Assembly: GCA_963665115.1 (NCBI GenBank)
Contig: OY762007.1
Location: forward strand, 4,512,001-4,576,000
Direction of reading: 5' to 3'
Origin: an uncultured Rivularia sp.
Lineage (GTDB): Bacteria > Cyanobacteriota > Cyanobacteriia > Cyanobacteriales > Nostocaceae
Length of the DNA: 64,000 bases
Of the stretch, positions 3,755-11,976 are shown in pieces. Under the pieces are notes generated by a model, which was not told the DNA's origin, made no database searches, and saw nothing but the letters and a program-made list of their open reading frames with translations. The position numbers were made by a program, and so were the translations under genes. Every line of letters begins with the position of its first letter. Position 1 is the stretch's first letter.

Positions 3755-3807
3755 TGTCTGGTTATTACGGTAATTGTAATCAAATTGATTTGGAAATAAG
3801 ATGTCAT

Positions 3808-4450
3808 TTAATTTCGTATATAGTCTTCATTAATAGCTGCATTTTCTATCTGGTTACGAAATAGATCGAGCATTGCAATTATTTCTGCGTGTAATTCTAT
3901 ATACTCTTCTCGATCGGATATCGAATATTCACCATGTGCAATTTCGTTTCTTTTCTTTAAAAGCTTAGTATCTATTAATACGGACTTTGTAGAGTAGGGT
4001 GAAAAGTCAATTCCTAAAATAATAGTTATTTCTTTTAATATTTCAGAAGAGAGGTTTGATGCAGTAGAAATTATGTCTTTCGGTAGCTCGCATCTTTGAT
4101 TTAATTCGTCTTAAAAAAAATCACAAACAGGTATATATAATGAAGGTTTATTTGTCTCTCTTGCCTCGTTAAGCCTTTCTTTCATTGCTAAAGCTAAAAA
4201 ATTGCTAGAAAGGTCTTTATAGCAAAGTTTTTGCATTCTGACATATTCCAGATAGGAATTTGCTGCTAATTTTACGAAACCTTCCCAATGAGCGTAGAGA
4301 AGACATATTCCACTGCGAATTAAGGCATTGTGTTTAGAAAGAGAAAATTTAGTTTCTACCAATGATTTAACTTCTGAAAGCTCTTTTTTTCGCCAAGCAA
4401 GTTCATTAGATAGTTTATCGCTTAGTTGTTCGGCAGTTTCTGAGCTTCAT
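3808..4450 (-). pseudogene. MAE_28990/MAE_18760-like HEPN nuclease, interrupted (+1 near 4438, in-frame TAA at 4111-4113)
   Basis: Reconstructs as MKLRTAEQLSDKLSNELAWRKKEL..LLYAHWEGFVK..CDFF*DELNQ..KKRNEIAHGE..EDYIRN*; Rx4H motif RNEIAH; ATGA overlap with the upstream stop. Confidence 0.75.
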
Positions 4451-5553
4451 TGGTGAGAAAATACCTCTCTACCAAGAGGAATAAGATATGGTAAACGTCT
4501 TGCTGCATTCACTCCTGCTCCCGACCATTTTTTATAAGTTGAATTTGTCCAAATGTTTTTAATGTTAGAAGAGATTTCGTTCGCTTGAGGTGGGTTTTGA
4601 TAGTTGTATCCAATTCCTAATGCTATGACTTCATATGCTGATAATAAAAAGCCTCCAATAAATCTATCTTGCTCGCGTTTGTATCTCTTAAAGCTATCAT
4701 CACTTAAAGCATCATCAAGAATATCAAATGTTTTTTTAAAAGCTTTTTCTATATGGCTATAATCTAACTTTTTATTAAGAGACATTTCACGCATTCCGTC
4801 TGTAAGGAAAACGCTAACATCTCCACCCAACTGTTTAAGACTTTCCTCATCTTTATCGAAAAGAAGAATAAAACGTAATACTAATTCCATATCATACTGC
4901 TCTTCATAAAGCCTATCGCTTAAGGCAATACAACTTCTAAATGATTCATAATTAGCAAGTGAACCCATCAATTCATATAAATCTTTATTCAACATTAAAA
5001 GAATACAATTTCTTACTTCTTGGGGTGTAGCAATTGCTCCTCCTGTATTCAGTCGCTGAAACAGTTCATATTTAACCATTTCATCACTTTCTTTTTCAAC
5101 GATATTAACTGCTATTTTTGCTCGCTTTATCAATAAACGTTGTGCTTGGTTAAAAGAATTTTCTTTATCGTTTGGATCGTCCCATTTTTTGCCTTCTAAA
5201 GAAGGTAAGTAGGTAGTTTTTTGCAAGGCTACACTTGATTTATTTTGTTGCTCCTCTGTTTTTAAAATACCTACAAATTCATATATCGTTGACAATCTTT
5301 GGACACCATCAACAACATCCCAAACACCATCATCTCTTTGACTAACAAAAATTGGTGGAATTGGTATTCCTAGAAGAATTGACTCTATAAAAGTTGATTT
5401 TTGATGGTCAGACCAACGAAAAATTCTTTGAAAATCTGGATGAATATCAATCTCATTATTTTGATAAAGGCTAATCCACTCACCAATAGACATTGAGTAT
5501 CCATCAGTACGAATTTCTTGCCTTGTTTTGTCAATCTCTTCTTGCAGGTGCAT
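4447..5553 (-). CDS. DUF262 (ParB/Srx-like, GmrSD N-terminal type) domain protein
   Basis: motifs PDFQRIFRW, DGVQRLSTI, FQRLNTGG. Confidence 0.88.
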   Translation of the reverse strand: MHLQEEIDKTRQEIRTDGYSMSIGEWISLYQNNEIDIHPDFQRIFRWSDHQKSTFIESILLGIPIPPIFVSQRDDGVWDVVDGVQRLSTIYEFVGILKTEEQQNKSSVALQKTTYLPSLEGKKWDDPNDKENSFNQAQRLLIKRAKIAVNIVEKESDEMVKYELFQRLNTGGAIATPQEVRNCILLMLNKDLYELMGSLANYESFRSCIALSDRLYEEQYDMELVLRFILLFDKDEESLKQLGGDVSVFLTDGMREMSLNKKLDYSHIEKAFKKTFDILDDALSDDSFKRYKREQDRFIGGFLLSAYEVIALGIGYNYQNPPQANEISSNIKNIWTNSTYKKWSGAGVNAARRLPYLIPLGREVFSHQ

Positions 5554-6089
5554 AATTTTAAATATTATAAAATTCTATTTACTTTACTACTGATTGTTGA
5601 TAGTAACGTCTCGCCATTCTATCGCTATAAATAACTTTTAACTGTTATTTACTTCAGATAATTCAATATTAATTTATGTTGGTTTATTCTGATATTATTA
5701 ATGATTTTCACTACATATTCTGTTTAGATAATTTATAAATAGTAGAGAAATATACAAACTAGTTTATTCAAATATATGACTGGGATAAAAGTAACATATA
5801 CAACTAATTTTGTTCAATTTTAGCATCACCTAAATTTTCATTATACCGTCCTACAGGAGTTTGAAGTTGATATCGTCTTTTCTCAAGTTATACAATTTAA
5901 GTGATTCAACTAGGACTTACTTACCCAACTTTCAAAAGAAATAATTATCCGATTCGTAAAAATTATCTAATTACCAGCCTTTGTATAAGCCTACATATAC
6001 AAAGGCTACTGCTGTAAAAATCCCCACTCTTTTGTGGAAAAGCTAGAATCAAAGTAGGGGTTTTAGACTGTGGAATTTCTGTAAAAAAT

Positions 6090-7534: not shown

Positions 7535-8259
7535 TTACAACTTATAAAAATCAAAATTACCCACCTTTGCAACAACATCGGGATTCTTTGCCAAACGCCC
7601 ATCTTCCATGTATATAATCCGATCGGCGATATCAAGAATGCGGTTATCGTGCGTTACCAGCAAAATCGTGCAGCCTTTCTCCTTCGCAAGACTCTGCATT
7701 AATTCCACCACATCACGCCCAGATTTTTTATCCAATGCTGCGGTAGGTTCATCAGCAAGGACTATTTTTGGTTCAGCAACCAAAGCACGAGCTATAGCAA
7801 CCCGTTGCTTCTGTCCCCCAGATAAATCATCTGGGTAATAATTTACACGGTCGCCCAATCCAACTGCTTCGAGCATTGCAATCGAACGGCTTTTCATTTG
7901 TGCTGTAGAAATACTCTTGTGTACTTCCAAACCCATTCTGACATTTTGCAAAGCCGTTAAACTGCCATGTAAATTGTGCGCTTGGAAGATGTAACCATTA
8001 CTGCGTCTAGCCTGCGTCAACTTGCCCGCATTAGCACCAATAAGTTCTTCACCCAAAACTTTCAAGCTCCCAGATTGTGGCGATCGCAAACCTCCAGCTA
8101 AAGTAAGCAAAGTAGTTTTACCAGAACCAGAAGGGCCCCCGTCATAATGATAATTTCACCAGCATTTATTTCCAAACTGATATCAAATAATACCTGCTTG
8201 CGAAGTTTTCCTTTCCCAAAAAAATGGTCAAGATTTTGAATAGAAATTACAGAAGACAT
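7535..8259 (-). CDS. devA: DevA-family ABC exporter ATP-binding subunit (frameshift near 8135)
   Basis: ATG at 8259 gives MSSVISIQNLDHFFG..IIIMTG, then GSGKTT in another frame; LSGGQKQR, LADEPT. Confidence 0.85.
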
Positions 8260-8327
8260 AAGAAGAGATAGTGGTTAGTAGTTAGTAGTTAGTGGTTAGG
8301 AGTTGGGAGTTATTGCAATAGATTTGT

Positions 8328-8352
8328 GTAGTGGGAGCATCTTGCTCCCTAG
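8328..8352. repeat. REP-like palindrome GTAGTGGGAGCATCTTGCTCCCT; family copies also at 9686-9709, 13297-13321, 23691-23713, 23848-23872, 47204, 47405
   Basis: same GTAG-flanked hairpin recurs in both orientations across the window. Confidence 0.85.
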
Positions 8353-8393
8353 CAGCAATCTTTTGTTCACTGTTGAATGTTAACTGCTCGCTG

Positions 8394-9575
8394 TTAAAAC
8401 ATATCTGCTGGATCTGCTGACTGAACTTTCCGAGTTGCTATAACTCCAGAAATCGCACACATAATTACAGTTAAAATAAACACCGTAGCTGCTCTACCTA
8501 CAGTCATGGCAATCGGTAAATTTGTGGCTTTTCTTGTTAATTGATAAAGCCCTAAAGGTACTATAGAACCTGGAATAAATCCTAATAAAGCTAAAATCAA
8601 AGCTTCTTCAAATACAACACCTAATAAATATAAATTGCGATAACCCATTGCTTTAAATGTGGCGTATTCTTTCATATGAGCATTTACATCAGTTGAAAGA
8701 ACTTGATAAACAATAATTACCCCAACAATAAATCCCATTGCCGTACCCAAGGTAAAGATAAAACCAACGGGAGATTCTCTCGACCAGAAGTCTATTTCAA
8801 ATTGAATAAATTCTTCGTGGGTAATAACTTTTATGTCGTCAAAATCTCTAAATCTATATTTTAAATCTCTGGCAACTTCTACAGGATCGTAACCTTCTTC
8901 AACCTTAATCAATGCTAAATTAATACTGCTAGCTTGGCGTTTACCGAATAACCTTAAAAAATTATCTCCGCTAGTAATTAAGTTACCATCAGCACCGAAA
9001 GAAGTTCCTAAAAAGAATAGTCCTCTAATATCTACAGTACGTCCTTCAATTTCCGTATTAACAGTTTTTCCTTGCTCAATCTGAGCTATAGCTTCTGTAT
9101 ATTCCCCCTTAGTTCCTTTATCAAATAAGAAAGTATCTGGGAGCTTGAGTAATGGCAATTGTTGCTTTAATTCTGGCAAATCTAAAGCTGGTTCATCCGG
9201 TTCAATTCCTAAAACTTGAATCGAAGTCTCTTGCTTAGTTTGGGGATTTTTCCATTTCACAATACTGACATACATGGGTTCTGCCGATTTTACTCCAGTT
9301 ATATCTTTTGCTTGATACATTCGTCGCCGCGAAAATGTAGATAAACTCTGCATATTTTTCGCTTTGGGACTAATCAAAACAATATCCGTATTCAAAGTCC
9401 GATTAAGACGAGTATTACTACTAAATAAAGCTCCTTGAAAACCGAGCTGCATAAACATCAAAACATCAGCAAAAGCAATACCCGAAATCGCTACTAATAA
9501 CCGACTTTTTTCATGACTTAATTGCAGCCATCCTAAAGGAGTTCGCCGCCGTAACTGTTCAATAAACCCAACCAT
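8394..9575 (-). CDS. devC: DevC-family ABC exporter permease (FtsX/MacB-like)
   Basis: RRTPLGWLQL, GIAFADVLMFMQLGF, EYATFKAMGY, ADPADMF. Confidence 0.9.
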   Translation of the reverse strand: MVGFIEQLRRRTPLGWLQLSHEKSRLLVAISGIAFADVLMFMQLGFQGALFSSNTRLNRTLNTDIVLISPKAKNMQSLSTFSRRRMYQAKDITGVKSAEPMYVSIVKWKNPQTKQETSIQVLGIEPDEPALDLPELKQQLPLLKLPDTFLFDKGTKGEYTEAIAQIEQGKTVNTEIEGRTVDIRGLFFLGTSFGADGNLITSGDNFLRLFGKRQASSINLALIKVEEGYDPVEVARDLKYRFRDFDDIKVITHEEFIQFEIDFWSRESPVGFIFTLGTAMGFIVGVIIVYQVLSTDVNAHMKEYATFKAMGYRNLYLLGVVFEEALILALLGFIPGSIVPLGLYQLTRKATNLPIAMTVGRAATVFILTVIMCAISGVIATRKVQSADPADMF

Positions 9576-9730
9576 AATTTTAGATTTTAGATTTTAGATT
9601 TGAATCGTTTCAATTAAATTACGTAATGCGTTAGTGCAGTCTGCCTGTAAGAAAACTGGGAGTATAATTTATAAGTATTGAGGAATAGCGAGCAAGATGC
9701 TCGCACTACGAATTCTTAATTGATAATTGT

Positions 9731-11056
9731 TCACCGATAGCTGATTTCCACTTCAACCTGCAAATTAGTAAACTTGCTCGCTATCTCGCTTGATTTCTCA
9801 TCCAAATTGATGCGAACTTCTACAACTTTTGCATCAATATTCTCGCTGGGATCGGTATTTATTACGTTTTGACGACGTATTTTTGAACCAATCCAATCCA
9901 CTTCTCCCTGCAATTGTGTTGGCAAAGAATTACTGGTAATAATCGCCTTTTGTCCGACTTTTATTTTACTAATATCTGTTTGATAAACTTCTGCTTCTGC
10001 ATACATCTGGCTGGTTTGCCCAATCTCGACAATCCCATTACTCGAAACCACTTCCCCCGCACGAGTATGTATTTCCAATACCTCACCAGCTTGGGGACTC
10101 CGCACGTAAACTTGCTTCAACTTCTCTTTAGCCTGATTTACCGACGCTACAGCATCCTTAACTTGTGCTTCTGCTGCTTGTACATCTACAGGGCGCACTT
10201 CAGAAACGCTGTCTAATGTAGCTCTGGCTTCGCTAATCTGCTTGCTTCCAGTATTGTTAATCCGTCTCAAAGCAGTCTCGGCTTCGCTGACTCGTTTAAT
10301 TCCTGTCGTTTCAGTTCTTCTAAGAACCGCTTTTGCTTCACTGAGTTGCTTTTGGGCTGTTTCCATTGCCAAACGCTTGCTATCAAAAACCGAACGAGAA
10401 ATAGCACCATCGTTGTACAACTTTTGATAGCGTCGATACTCAGCTTCTGCGTTTCTCAGTTCAGCCTCAATTCTCTCAATAGTCGCCTGTTGCGCCGCAA
10501 TATCACCCTCTAGCTGCGCTTTCAAGCGGATAACTGCATCAGCTTGAGCCGCTCTGTCACCTTCTAACTGAGCCTCCAAACGGGCAACTGTCGCCTTTTG
10601 CGCCGCAATATCGCCGCTTTTCGCTCCCGCTTTCACCTTCGCTAAATTAACTTGAGCAATTTTTACCTGTTGCTCGGCTTTGACAACATCAGCTTGCAGT
10701 CTATCTTTGTTATCGAGAACTGCAATAATTTGTCCAGACTTAATCTTCTCCCCTTCCTTAACCAACAATTGCTCGACTCTACTTTCTTGGTTAGATGTCG
10801 GTGCGGAAACTTTAACAATTTCTCCCTTTGGTTCTAAACTTCCCAAAGCAGTTACTTTTGTAATCTCAGGTACTCTAACCAGAGCTTCTTTTGCTGCATT
10901 AATTTCCGCCCTTTTAAATTGCCTGTAAGTAGTGACACCACCCACAGCAATTGTTGCGGCGATCGCCATTATCAACAGTTGCCGAGAACTAGGTTTAAAC
11001 GAGATATTGTTATTAGCTGCTGTATCGCGCACCATTGGGTGCCTCCTGGATACCAT
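9731..11056 (-). CDS. devB: DevB-family membrane fusion protein (HlyD-like)
   Basis: VTALGSLEPKGE, long coiled coil, AEVYQTDI, KVVEVRI; start may be the second Met. Confidence 0.88.
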   Translation of the reverse strand: MVSRRHPMVRDTAANNNISFKPSSRQLLIMAIAATIAVGGVTTYRQFKRAEINAAKEALVRVPEITKVTALGSLEPKGEIVKVSAPTSNQESRVEQLLVKEGEKIKSGQIIAVLDNKDRLQADVVKAEQQVKIAQVNLAKVKAGAKSGDIAAQKATVARLEAQLEGDRAAQADAVIRLKAQLEGDIAAQQATIERIEAELRNAEAEYRRYQKLYNDGAISRSVFDSKRLAMETAQKQLSEAKAVLRRTETTGIKRVSEAETALRRINNTGSKQISEARATLDSVSEVRPVDVQAAEAQVKDAVASVNQAKEKLKQVYVRSPQAGEVLEIHTRAGEVVSSNGIVEIGQTSQMYAEAEVYQTDISKIKVGQKAIITSNSLPTQLQGEVDWIGSKIRRQNVINTDPSENIDAKVVEVRINLDEKSSEIASKFTNLQVEVEISYR

Positions 11057-11166: not shown

Positions 11167-11976
11167 ATGAAAGAAACACAATTATCCGAAAAAGCCGAAG
11201 CAATTCTTCAAGGAGCAATAAAAGAATTTTTAGTACACGGCTTTGCAGCTACAACGATGGATGGAGTTGCAGCTACAGCTAAAGTCTCGAAAACTACGGT
11301 ATATAGTTATTTTCAGGATAAGGAAACCTTATTTTTAGCTTTAACTGAGCGATTAACAAAGCAGAGGTATGACAGAGTATTTAATCCCCAGAAAGCTCAA
11401 TCCAGCAAAGAAGAAGTAAGCATTGTGCTGCATCGTTTAGCAAACAGTATGTTAGAAGCGATGATGGGCAATGAAGAAGCGCTAGGATTATTACGGATAA
11501 TTATCGGAGAGTCGGGACGTTTTCCTGAATTAGCAAGGGCTTTCGTCACTATCATTAAAAAATCGGCTTTACAGGATTTAACCCAATTATTCGAGTCTCG
11601 TAGCGAACTCAATTTACCCGATGCAGAAGTCGCAGCCAGAATATACATGGGTACATTTATGCATTTCGTGATGACTAGCGAAGTGCTGCACGGTAAAGAC
11701 ATTATGCCAATCGAACGGGATAGGTTAATAGACAACTTGATTCACCTACTAACCAGCAATCAAAGCAATGCAACTACAAAACATAAATCTTCCCGATGCA
11801 ACCGCAGCGATTCGGGTAAATTCCAGCAAGATTACAAAGCCGAGCAAAAACGCTTGCGCTCCATGAGACTCACAGATACAGCTTGGGAAAAACTAGCTGC
11901 CATCGCCGAATCAAATCAACTCAGTCGCAGCGAAGTTATTGAAATGTTTGCACGGGGAGAAGGATTAGAAAAATAA
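11167..11976 (+). CDS. TetR/AcrR regulator with a C-terminal ribbon-helix-helix-like extension
   Basis: HTH GFAATTMDGVAATAKVSKTTVYSYFQDKE; tail RSMRLTDTAWEKLAAIAESNQLSRSEVIE. Confidence 0.88.
   Translation: MKETQLSEKAEAILQGAIKEFLVHGFAATTMDGVAATAKVSKTTVYSYFQDKETLFLALTERLTKQRYDRVFNPQKAQSSKEEVSIVLHRLANSMLEAMMGNEEALGLLRIIIGESGRFPELARAFVTIIKKSALQDLTQLFESRSELNLPDAEVAARIYMGTFMHFVMTSEVLHGKDIMPIERDRLIDNLIHLLTSNQSNATTKHKSSRCNRSDSGKFQQDYKAEQKRLRSMRLTDTAWEKLAAIAESNQLSRSEVIEMFARGEGLEK

Follow-up and report, generated by a model that had tools for sequence, protein, structure and literature searches.

A decayed two-gene DUF262–HEPN cassette, likely an anti-phage module of PD-T4-2 type

Introduction

Within the 64-kb stretch of DNA analyzed here, the whole of which is referred to as the window, a gene for a DUF262 protein overlaps a HEPN gene whose reading frame is interrupted, which raises the questions of what such a pair does, whether the two genes belong together and whether the damage to one of them is real. 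Our answer, to which we give a probability of roughly 0.78, is that the locus is a decayed two-gene DUF262–HEPN cassette and likely an anti-phage module of PD-T4-2 type. The architecture of the DUF262–HEPN pair is already known, and the copy in the window is a decayed one.

Gene layout and genomic context

The genes of the module and all features within it lie on the minus strand. The main features of the locus are the following:

3808..5553, minus strand, DUF262–HEPN module
4447..5553, minus strand, DUF262/ParB-type NTPase gene of 368 codons, intact (ORF)
3808..4450, minus strand, HEPN gene of the MAE_28990 family, a pseudogene here (read-through translation and Pfam)
4447..4450, minus strand, stop/start overlap ATGA, in which the TGA of the DUF262 gene shares bases with the ATG of the HEPN gene
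3782..5894, no strand assigned, stretch of ~2.1 kb comprising the module together with the spacer upstream of it (window compared by blastn with the genome G007, locus L096)

An intact DUF262 gene running into the start of a HEPN gene by an ATGA had been described in the earlier note on this DNA, and both the 368-aa ORF and the overlap at 4447-4450 were confirmed; translational coupling of the two genes is predicted from this overlap. In the window the module is flanked by genes for a SulP permease and a Ser/Thr kinase. In the same-genus genome G007 (locus L096) only 254 bp separate the SulP permease and Ser/Thr kinase genes by blastn, and no remnant of DUF262 or HEPN was found at the module site. 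The earlier note had also placed the pair in an AT-rich patch, which is correct insofar as its GC content (0.330) is below the window mean (0.372, sd 0.03), but the departure is mild, as 8.7% of segments of the same size are equally low. The lack of a HIP1 site, offered alongside, is uninformative, because 14 sites in 64 kb lead one to expect only ~0.4 per 1.75 kb. A scan for promoters and terminators returned a number of sites that was not above that in shuffled sequence.

The DUF262 protein

Three motifs were located in the DUF262 gene:

5413-5430, minus strand, QRIFRW (QRxxxW motif)
5296-5310, minus strand, DGVQR (DGxQR motif)
5047-5061, minus strand, FQRLN (FxxxN motif)

These correspond to the DUF262 NTPase motif set QRxxxW, DGxQR and FxxxN as listed in PMC12065111, and they are largely invariant among 63 relatives, with Q42, R46, W47, D82, G83, R86, F166 and N170 invariant in all. 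The sole Pfam domain of the 368-aa protein is PF03235 (GmrSD_N/DUF262; E 1.9e-26), a DUF1524 domain being absent from it, and the N-terminal DUF262 domain is followed by a helical C-terminal part resembling those of NsnA and PD-T4-2A. Its best PADLOC match is to the NsnA (Menshen) model (1.2e-61), on which it scores higher than on PD-T4-2_A (5.7e-32), and the DUF262 partners examined in relatives all match both models (63/63). The AlphaFold2 model of a relative (pLDDT 86.9) gave BrxU, SspE and ParB-N as its best Foldseek rows, all of them weak (E 4.2e-3 or worse), and a profile search of the PDB with the DUF262 family gave no match. The protein is predicted to be the sensor of the module.

The HEPN protein

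In its intact form the HEPN gene would consist of 213 codons, starting from the ATG of the ATGA overlap and ending in a TAA at 3808-3810; in the window the frame from 4446 to 3811 translates to 212 residues and is interrupted by a single TAA. Two conserved motifs were recognized in it:

4279..4302, minus strand, LLYAHWEG, conserved N-terminal motif of the family
3934..3951, minus strand, RNEIAH (Rx4H), predicted catalytic motif of the HEPN RNase, downstream of the internal TAA

The earlier note had reconstructed a HEPN gene of ~213 codons with these two motifs, and this was borne out by the read-through frame, which matches PF18737 (HEPN_MAE_28990) over its full length (profile positions 2-211 of 211) with an E-value of 4.8e-58 and 197.2 bits against a curated cut-off of 26.8; the match to PF18735 has an E-value of 1e-43. 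Relatives with an intact 213-aa HEPN exist, and across 65 relatives L51, Y52, H54, W55, E56, G57 and F58 in the first motif region and R167, N168, A171, H172 and G173 in the second are invariant. NCBI names such relatives "MAE_28990/MAE_18760 family HEPN-like nuclease", and the 8.69-Mb genome has no second PF18737 match besides this gene.

Structure comparison also points to a HEPN fold for the repaired protein, as had been claimed. A model of a 93%-identical intact relative (pLDDT 92.6) gave 17 matches with a Z score of at least 8, and HEPN proteins make up at least 10 of these, including 4nqf (10.3), the sacsin HEPN domain (9.7), SO_3166 (9.7), AbiA (8.6) and HepS (8.4), in a range in which, by the tool's own warning, a Z near 10 for a helical bundle may reflect a common arrangement. 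With Foldseek, neither the HEPN nor the DUF262 model had a PDB match at E ≤0.001, a profile search of the PDB with the HEPN family returned only chance-level SPT6 rows, and neither protein was matched in NCBIfam at E ≤0.01.

Conservation of the pair and its proposed function

The cassette family is widespread, a HEPN relative being present in 344 species-representative genomes, from which 80 loci of several phyla were kept for analysis. A DUF262 homologue is found directly upstream of the HEPN gene and on the same strand in every one of them (80/80), which upholds the proposal of a DUF262 plus Rx4H-HEPN two-gene module. The DUF262 stop overlaps the HEPN start in 67 loci, by 4 nt, as in the window, in 52/80 and by a 1-nt TAATG-type arrangement in 15/80, and in locus L031 the two proteins are joined in a single frame of 585 aa. 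Across the 80 loci the pair has no conserved third partner, methylase included, in agreement with the earlier note's view of a system without a methylase; the largest family of flanking genes occurs in 16/80 loci, all of one lineage. Within the genus, purifying selection acts on the two genes alike (dN/dS 0.09-0.23 in 35/36 pairs).

According to PMC12065111 and PMC10952713, DUF262 domains in the systems that have been studied are DNA-sensing NTPases. By analogy with published work on DUF262 domains (GmrSD, BrxU and SspE) and on HEPN RNases, we suggest that, where both genes are whole, the DUF262 protein would act as a DNA-binding sensor that detects phage DNA by means of its NTPase cycle. Activation of its HEPN partner would follow, and this partner would cut RNA (tRNA or mRNA) and so halt the phage, with the infected cell probably sacrificed in the process. 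In this strain, where the sensor half alone remains, the module would give no such protection.

A different view of the same pair is that it is toxin–antitoxin-like, with a HEPN RNase toxin restrained by a DUF262 antitoxin and a main role in addiction or the response to stress. The pair does resemble toxin–antitoxin modules in the order of its genes, in how tightly they overlap and in its small RNase partner, and such roles have been proposed for other HEPN dyads of the MAE_18760 family that are paired with a ParA/Soj ATPase (PMC3710099). Copies in which DUF262 is broken and the HEPN frame whole, of which there are nine among the 80 loci, show that HEPN alone is not always lethal; they can be counted in favor of this view, but they also oppose a strict antitoxin role, since loss of an antitoxin should be lethal. 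The DNA-sensing character of the studied DUF262 domains likewise argues against it, as does the fact that the closest validated system, PD-T4-2, was selected by phage defence, and we consider a toxin–antitoxin role unlikely.

The same loci bear on the suggestion, made in the earlier note, that the broken HEPN gene reflects loss of a toxic component. As a general pattern this did not hold up: in a sample that was reached through HEPN rather than through DUF262, and is therefore biased for counts of which partner is broken, 7 of the 80 loci have a broken HEPN gene and 11 a broken DUF262 gene, about as gene length predicts. Since HEPN is broken no more often than DUF262, the toxin is not generally the first component to be lost.

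A premature stop codon in the HEPN gene

That the HEPN gene in the window is broken at two places, as first noted from the sequence, was verified. The lesions and the run of T residues adjoining one of them are as follows:

4111..4113, minus strand, in-frame TAA replacing Leu112 (TTA) (read-through translation, DNA alignment and run contigs)
4113..4120, minus strand, T8 run on the coding strand, the first T of which is the T of the TAA (alignment)
4437, minus strand, an additional A (coding strand), which turns AGAACT into AGAAACT (DNA alignment)

The TAA at codon 112 removes the C-terminal half of the protein, and the Rx4H motif is untranslated here because it lies downstream of this stop. 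Among eight aligned loci (that of the window and seven from same-genus relatives), the codon at this site is Leu (TTA or TTG) in five. The TAA is carried by contigs from three near-identical runs, X1, X2 and X3, which derive from three samples (word depths of 206, 78 and 288, respectively). X4, a strain that is ~99% identical, has T>A at 4112, which gives TTA (Leu), and it is without the extra base. Given the TAA at codon 112, no full-length HEPN protein can be produced in this strain. Rescue of the TAA by slippage or programmed frameshifting at the T8 run was considered and rejected, as the stop is in frame and shifts of +1 or -1 also meet stops.

Recurrence of the stop codon and decay of the module in the genus

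The same TAA was identified in two other species, in the fragmented assemblies of G009 (280 contigs) and G015 (410 contigs), and in the module tree it falls at three separate places: G000, which has the window allele, is sister to G003 (support 100/100), G015 is sister to G006 (100/100), and G009 stands alone inside a clade supported at 96/98. In the sequence flanking the TAA (10 nt upstream and 22 nt downstream), G000 resembles G003, not G009. Close relatives with an intact HEPN gene have T9 followed by A or G at the site of the T8 run, and the TAA likely arose when the last T of a T9 run changed to A. A frameshift at the same T run occurs in another lineage (P0122/P0125), and the distant MAG L086 has a TGA at the codon of the TAA. 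From these observations the end of the T9 run is likely a mutation-prone site that has been struck about three times in the genus. Gene conversion over very short tracts, in place of repeated mutation, could also account for the recurrence.

Two readings would give the T run a role beyond that of an accident. The first, that T9 is a hypermutable weak point by which a costly RNase effector is silenced again and again without loss of the DUF262 sensor, such that mutation would turn an abortive-infection toxin on and off and the orphan DUF262 would be useful in itself, appears to us quite improbable. The second takes the nonsense mutation at the T run not as plain decay but as a contingency locus, a selected switch by which an effector that is costly can be turned off reversibly. 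Speaking for such a switch are the TAA at the same codon at three positions in the tree, the frameshift and the TGA just described, the coexistence of TTA and TAA alleles in strains about 1% apart, and the dN/dS values for the G000-G003 pair, which are 0.03 for DUF262 and 0.27 for HEPN. However, T9 is what the usual AT-rich codons (TTT TTT TTA) produce and most of the family has not retained it (it is present in about 12/89 rows of the family alignment), large deletions have also destroyed the module in G001, G013 and G017, breakage in the 80 loci tracks gene length, and a reversal of the T-to-A change needs another substitution. A selected switch is thus very unlikely.

The extra base and the question of read errors

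Owing to the extra base at 4437, the reading goes out of frame after codon 4, such that the frame of the ATG reads MKLRNCRTTKR and then stops; in six of the eight aligned loci the reading from the ATGA start is MKLRTAEQL. The assembly and X1 have the extra base, the contigs of X2, X3 and X4 do not, and an extra A is found at the corresponding position in the separately assembled relative G003. The extra base may be a polymorphism or an artefact. Over 5.7 kb the only differences specific to X1 are the base at 4437 and a 1-base insertion at 1205 that splits a gene, with zero substitutions, a pattern that fits platform-specific indel errors. The earlier note had allowed that either lesion might be a read error, and this survives for the extra base and fails for the TAA. 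The more sweeping explanation, in which errors of sequencing or assembly account for both lesions and the organism itself has an undamaged HEPN gene, is highly improbable, as the TAA is a substitution in contigs of three runs from three samples and recurs in the assemblies of G009 and G015, and the extra A is shared with the independent assembly of G003.

Implications of the decayed copy

With the TAA in place, we view the locus as a decayed cassette in a genus where every stage in the decay of such a defence module can be seen: intact copies, recurrent nonsense mutation at a run-end hotspot, frameshift, large deletions and an empty site. The occurrence of intact and null alleles in near-identical strains could make it a natural case for the study of the cost and turnover of a toxic effector. 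In addition, the PADLOC models would flag only an orphan NsnA-like protein here, and the MAE_28990-type branch would probably be missed; this annotation gap is a matter for curators and not new biology.

Comparison with known systems

The HEPN fold and the Rx4H motif are shared with HepS, the C-terminal domain of AbiA and the HEPN-MNT toxins, and the corresponding structures (9oik, 8oz7, 5yep and 7ae2) match the HEPN model with Z scores of 8.4 to 9.7 at identities of 6-18%. Those proteins, however, are controlled by a phage tail tip, a reverse-transcriptase domain and MNT, not by DUF262. With GmrSD, BrxU and SspE the module has in common the DUF262 NTPase domain and its QRxxxW, DGxQR and FxxxN motifs, but in those systems a DUF1524 HNH nuclease is fused to DUF262, whereas here there is none and the predicted effector is a separate protein of RNase type rather than a fused DNase.

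Menshen (NsnABC; Millman et al. 2022; Li et al. 2025, PMC12065111) resembles the module in the make-up of its NsnA-type sensor, but it requires the ABC-ATPase NsnB and the effector NsnC (an inactive-PIN domain and a nuclease domain), in place of which a stand-alone HEPN protein is found here. The notion that the locus is a Menshen remnant that lost NsnB and NsnC and has an unrelated HEPN gene alongside draws on NsnA being the best PADLOC match, and we reject it as highly improbable, because no ABC-ATPase or NsnC-like gene adjoins the pair in the window, none is conserved in the 80 loci, and HEPN is the constant neighbor with a stop/start overlap.

A survey of HEPN proteins from 2013 (PMC3710099, Table 1) records operons in which a MAE_28990 HEPN gene is combined with a ParB-type gene. 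The entry, which is a computational note only, concerns the same Pfam family (PF18737) and the same ParB-type neighbor, and differs in that the 80 loci studied here have no conserved methylase gene next to the pair.

The closest counterpart is PD-T4-2 of E. coli ECOR65, described as "DUF262, HEPN" and validated as an anti-phage system (Vassallo et al. 2022, PMC9519451 supplement). Its deletion from ECOR65 increases plaquing of T4 (PMC9519451), and a strain with the H127A mutation is listed in the supplement to that paper; among the papers since 2023 in the literature searched, none dealt with its mechanism, judging by their listings. By hhalign, the authentic PD-T4-2A matches the DUF262 family with a probability of 99.6 (E 4.3e-24, 287 columns), although the DUF262 proteins are only 24% identical. 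The top HHpred matches reported for PD-T4-2B are PF18735 and PF18737 (PMC9519451), under which the HEPN protein in the window also falls, but PD-T4-2B has 167 aa compared to 213 aa here, and their relation is undetectable beyond the Rx4H region: hhalign of the authentic PD-T4-2B with the HEPN family gave a probability of 0.2 (E 0.3), with alignment only around Rx4H, and the PADLOC model PD-T4-2_B gave no row for the window HEPN (E ≤10) or for 65 relatives (E ≤1). The settings differ as well, since the E. coli copy examined lies beside satellite-type genes (psu, ogr/delta and integrase), whereas the module described here occupies a fixed chromosomal site between the SulP permease and kinase genes and is broken. 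Nevertheless, the order of the genes, with DUF262 (PF03235) first and a small Rx4H HEPN second in a two-gene operon without a methylase, is the architecture of PD-T4-2 (PMC9519451), and together with the PADLOC matches to NsnA and PD-T4-2_A this removes the novelty that the earlier note had left conditional on the lack of a named match.

The DUF262-HEPN gene pair

The earlier note had described an intact DUF262 gene whose stop overlaps the start of a HEPN gene, and this arrangement was borne out by the open reading frame, the Pfam matches and a read-through translation, which gave the following features:

4447..5553, minus strand: DUF262 gene, intact ORF of 368 aa
4447-4450, minus strand: ATGA stop/start overlap, DUF262 TGA and ATG
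4446 to 3811, minus strand: HEPN frame past the overlap, 212 residues with a single internal TAA

The DUF262 protein matched the Pfam family GmrSD_N/DUF262 (PF03235, E 1.9e-26) over residues 29-185 and has all three of the DUF262 motifs listed in PMC12065111 (QRIFRW, DGVQR and FQRLN). The HEPN frame matched the whole HEPN_MAE_28990 profile (PF18737, E 4.8e-58, positions 2-211 of 211), with HEPN_RiboL-PSP as its second Pfam match (E 1e-43), and LLYAHWEG and the Rx4H motif RNEIAH were found where they had first been read. PF18737 has no other match in this genome of 8.69 Mb. The predicted structures agree with these identities, as at least 10 of the 17 matches to the HEPN model (pLDDT 92.6) with a Z of 8 or more were HEPN proteins, and the best structural matches of the DUF262 model (pLDDT 86.9) were BrxU, SspE and ParB N-domains, all of them weak. 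Outside the window the genome has five further PF03235 matches, probably in GmrSD-like proteins: the open frames that hold them are 598-634 aa long for four of the matches (two share one 610-aa frame) and 407 aa long for the fifth.

The module is indeed lower in GC than the window (0.330 versus 0.372 ± 0.03), but 8.7% of same-size windows are equally low. Similarly, the module contains no HIP1 site, as had been noted, but this says little because 14 sites in the 64-kb window lead to an expectation of about 0.4 in 1.75 kb.

Conservation of the pair

A search with an intact relative of the HEPN protein, at a cut-off of E 0.001, identified 2603 proteins, the best 120 of which were 208-229 aa in length and 74-100% identical, many of them named by NCBI as "MAE_28990/MAE_18760 family HEPN-like nuclease". 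A HEPN relative was encoded in 344 stretches of species-representative genomes, and 80 of these loci, which by their record titles came from Cyanobacteria, Chloroflexota, Acidobacteriota, Planctomycetota, Desulfobacterota and others, were kept for neighbourhood analysis. At every one of the 80 loci the gene directly upstream of HEPN, on the same strand, was homologous to the window's DUF262 gene, so the homologues co-occur as a pair; the stop/start overlap was of the ATGA type in 52 and of the TAATG type in 15. At one locus (L031:2891-4633, a Fortiea record) the DUF262 end ..LGRERSIFYC continues directly into MKVRTAEQL.. within a single 585-aa frame that holds both genes; the joining is either natural or due to an indel error.

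No third conserved gene was found beside the pair among the 80 loci; the largest family of flanking genes, encoding a Uma2-family protein, was present at 16 loci, all from Microcoleus or Tychonema, and the remainder were housekeeping genes. Nor was a conserved methylase or NsnB-type ATPase found next to the pair in these loci, in support of the earlier suggestion that the module has no methylase partner.

Lesions in the HEPN gene

Both lesions that had been named in the HEPN gene, a +1 base and an in-frame TAA, are present. In an alignment of the window locus with seven same-genus relatives, the intact start is the ATG of the ATGA overlap, reading MKLRTAEQL.. in six of the eight loci, and an extra A at about 4437 (AGAACT to AGAAACT) shifts the frame after codon 4 in the window and in its nearest relative, G003. 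The stop lies in TTT TTT TAA, where the coding strand has T8-AA in place of T9-A; two relatives, G009 and G015, share it, and the other five loci have Leu (TTA or TTG).

The Logan contigs of four sequencing runs from one study (X1-X4) were compared with the window. Those of X1 were identical to it, and those of X2 and X3 kept the TAA and were identical but for one base missing at 4437 and one at 1205, the latter in a BrxC/BrxD-like gene. X4 differed at 19 other positions in the first 2 kb compared, had no extra base and carried T>A at 4112, giving TTA. Intact, TAA-only and TAA-plus-frameshift alleles thus coexist among very close strains. The earlier note had allowed that either lesion could be a read error. 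This was not the case for the TAA, which is real because it is a substitution supported in three runs from three samples (word depths of 206, 78 and 288). The frameshift is more difficult to assign: the X1-specific differences over 5.7 kb were two 1-base insertions (4437 and 1205), each splitting a gene, and no substitutions, which looks like platform-specific error, but the same extra A at 4437 occurs in the separate assembly of G003, from which the 1205 insertion is absent. With or without the frameshift, the TAA is enough to remove the C-terminal half bearing the Rx4H motif.

Other features of the window

One extra C at 1205, within GGGCCC, breaks the BrxC/BrxD-family ATPase gene (PF10923; 209-1538, plus strand) into two ORFs, 209-1222 and 1200-1538; this base is absent from X2, X3 and X4. 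Without it the frame is 442 aa, and in relatives the gene is one unbroken ORF of about 453 aa. Either this defence-type gene too has recently been frameshifted, or the insertion is a platform error. Between this gene and a SulP gene the window has heptamers repeated in tandem (ATTGGTA x7.4 and CCCAATT x6; 1539-1590 and 2006-2048), which we take to be STRR-like repeats. Word depth at these arrays rose to about 10^5 in each of X1-X4, which marks them as members of a highly abundant repeat family, and contigs break there. The ABC-ATPase, FtsX-like permease and HlyD-type genes clustered at 7535-11056 (minus strand), beside a gene for a TetR-family regulator (11167-11976), resemble a common efflux-type operon.

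Decay of the module across the genus

Some part of the module was present in 12 genomes among the window's own (G000) and the 24 same-genus genomes searched. Both genes were intact in five (G004, G005, G006, G010 and G019), the HEPN gene had point lesions in four (G000, G003, G009 and G015, the last with a further 13-nt deletion at the DUF262 end), and large deletions were found in three (G001, G013 and G017). In G001 (L093; C2:95000-99600) a 560-bp deletion fuses DUF262 residues 1-301 to HEPN residues 120-213, and a 110-aa protein, P0128, has been called across this deletion on a contig equal in length to that of L093 (237528 bases). In G007 the module site is 254 bp, versus 2114 bp in the window.

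The three TAA alleles did not group together when the module's sequences were put on a maximum-likelihood tree but fell at three separate places, with G000 sister of G003 (100/100), G015 sister of G006 (100/100) and G009 alone within a clade supported at 96/98; the sequence adjoining the TAA in G000 resembles that of G003, not G009. A T-to-A change at the final T of T9-A is expected under the transient-misalignment ("dislocation") model of substitution, and because the TAA fits this model we read the site as a mutational hotspot. A frameshift in the same T-run occurs in a metagenomic contig (P0122/P0125), and in a Bdellovibrionales MAG (L086, 1148-1780), whose HEPN protein is only 42% identical, a T7 run precedes a TGA at that codon (..VIDFF*); the DUF262 gene of this MAG also has a stop near the contig start. 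The repeated run-end nonsense mutation, together with intact and null alleles in near-identical strains, is the one mildly unusual point about the module.

The suggestion that the toxic effector is lost preferentially did not hold in general. Among the 80 loci, which were retrieved via HEPN and are therefore biased against badly broken HEPN genes, the HEPN gene was broken in 7, the DUF262 gene in 11 and both in 2, and 7:11 is close to what the gene lengths (642 and 1107 nt) would give. In 35 of 36 pairs the dN/dS values of both genes lay at 0.09-0.23; those for G000 and G003, based on few changes, were 0.03 for DUF262 and 0.27 for HEPN, which hints that constraint on HEPN may be relaxed in these two lineages.

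Proposed mechanism

What the sequences show directly is which parts are present, that they are strictly paired and that the two genes overlap; the mechanism proposed here goes beyond this. By analogy with the DUF262 proteins of GmrSD, BrxU and SspE, as described in PMC12065111 and PMC10952713, and with published HEPN RNases, the DUF262/ParB-type protein would bind DNA, sensing phage DNA by an NTPase cycle, and would then switch on a HEPN dimer. The HEPN protein would cleave RNA and so halt infection, probably through abortive infection. Since the effector is truncated ahead of its catalytic motif, the module of the window strain would not function in defence.

Comparison with known systems

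In PADLOC the DUF262 protein matched NsnA (1.2e-61) and PD-T4-2_A (5.7e-32), and 63 of 63 partner proteins from relatives matched both models. Menshen, according to PMC12065111, requires NsnB and NsnC, whereas both are absent at the window locus.

The supplement of PMC9519451 lists PD-T4-2 as a validated "DUF262, HEPN" system, with PD-T4-2A as PF03235 and PF18735 (probability 97.8) and PF18737 (96.9) as the top HHpred matches of PD-T4-2B; it also lists an H127A mutant strain, and T4 plaquing is reported in PMC9519451 to have risen after PD-T4-2 was deleted from ECOR65. An authentic pair was taken from an E. coli genome for comparison. Its flanks (L097; NZ_CP013025.1 3551401-3556450) carry psu (polarity suppression) and ogr/delta, with an integrase gene on the other side, and look like a P4-like satellite; a search with a 50-nt primer arm located PD-T4-2 in 17 out of 5426 complete genomes of E. 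coli. PD-T4-2A aligned with the window's DUF262 family over 287 columns (probability 99.6, E 4.3e-24), whereas PD-T4-2B (167 aa) had no alignment with the HEPN family outside the Rx4H region (probability 0.2), and none of 65 HEPN relatives matched the PD-T4-2_B model. We assign the module as a PD-T4-2-type DUF262-HEPN cassette of the MAE_28990 branch, present in the window as a broken copy of a known kind.
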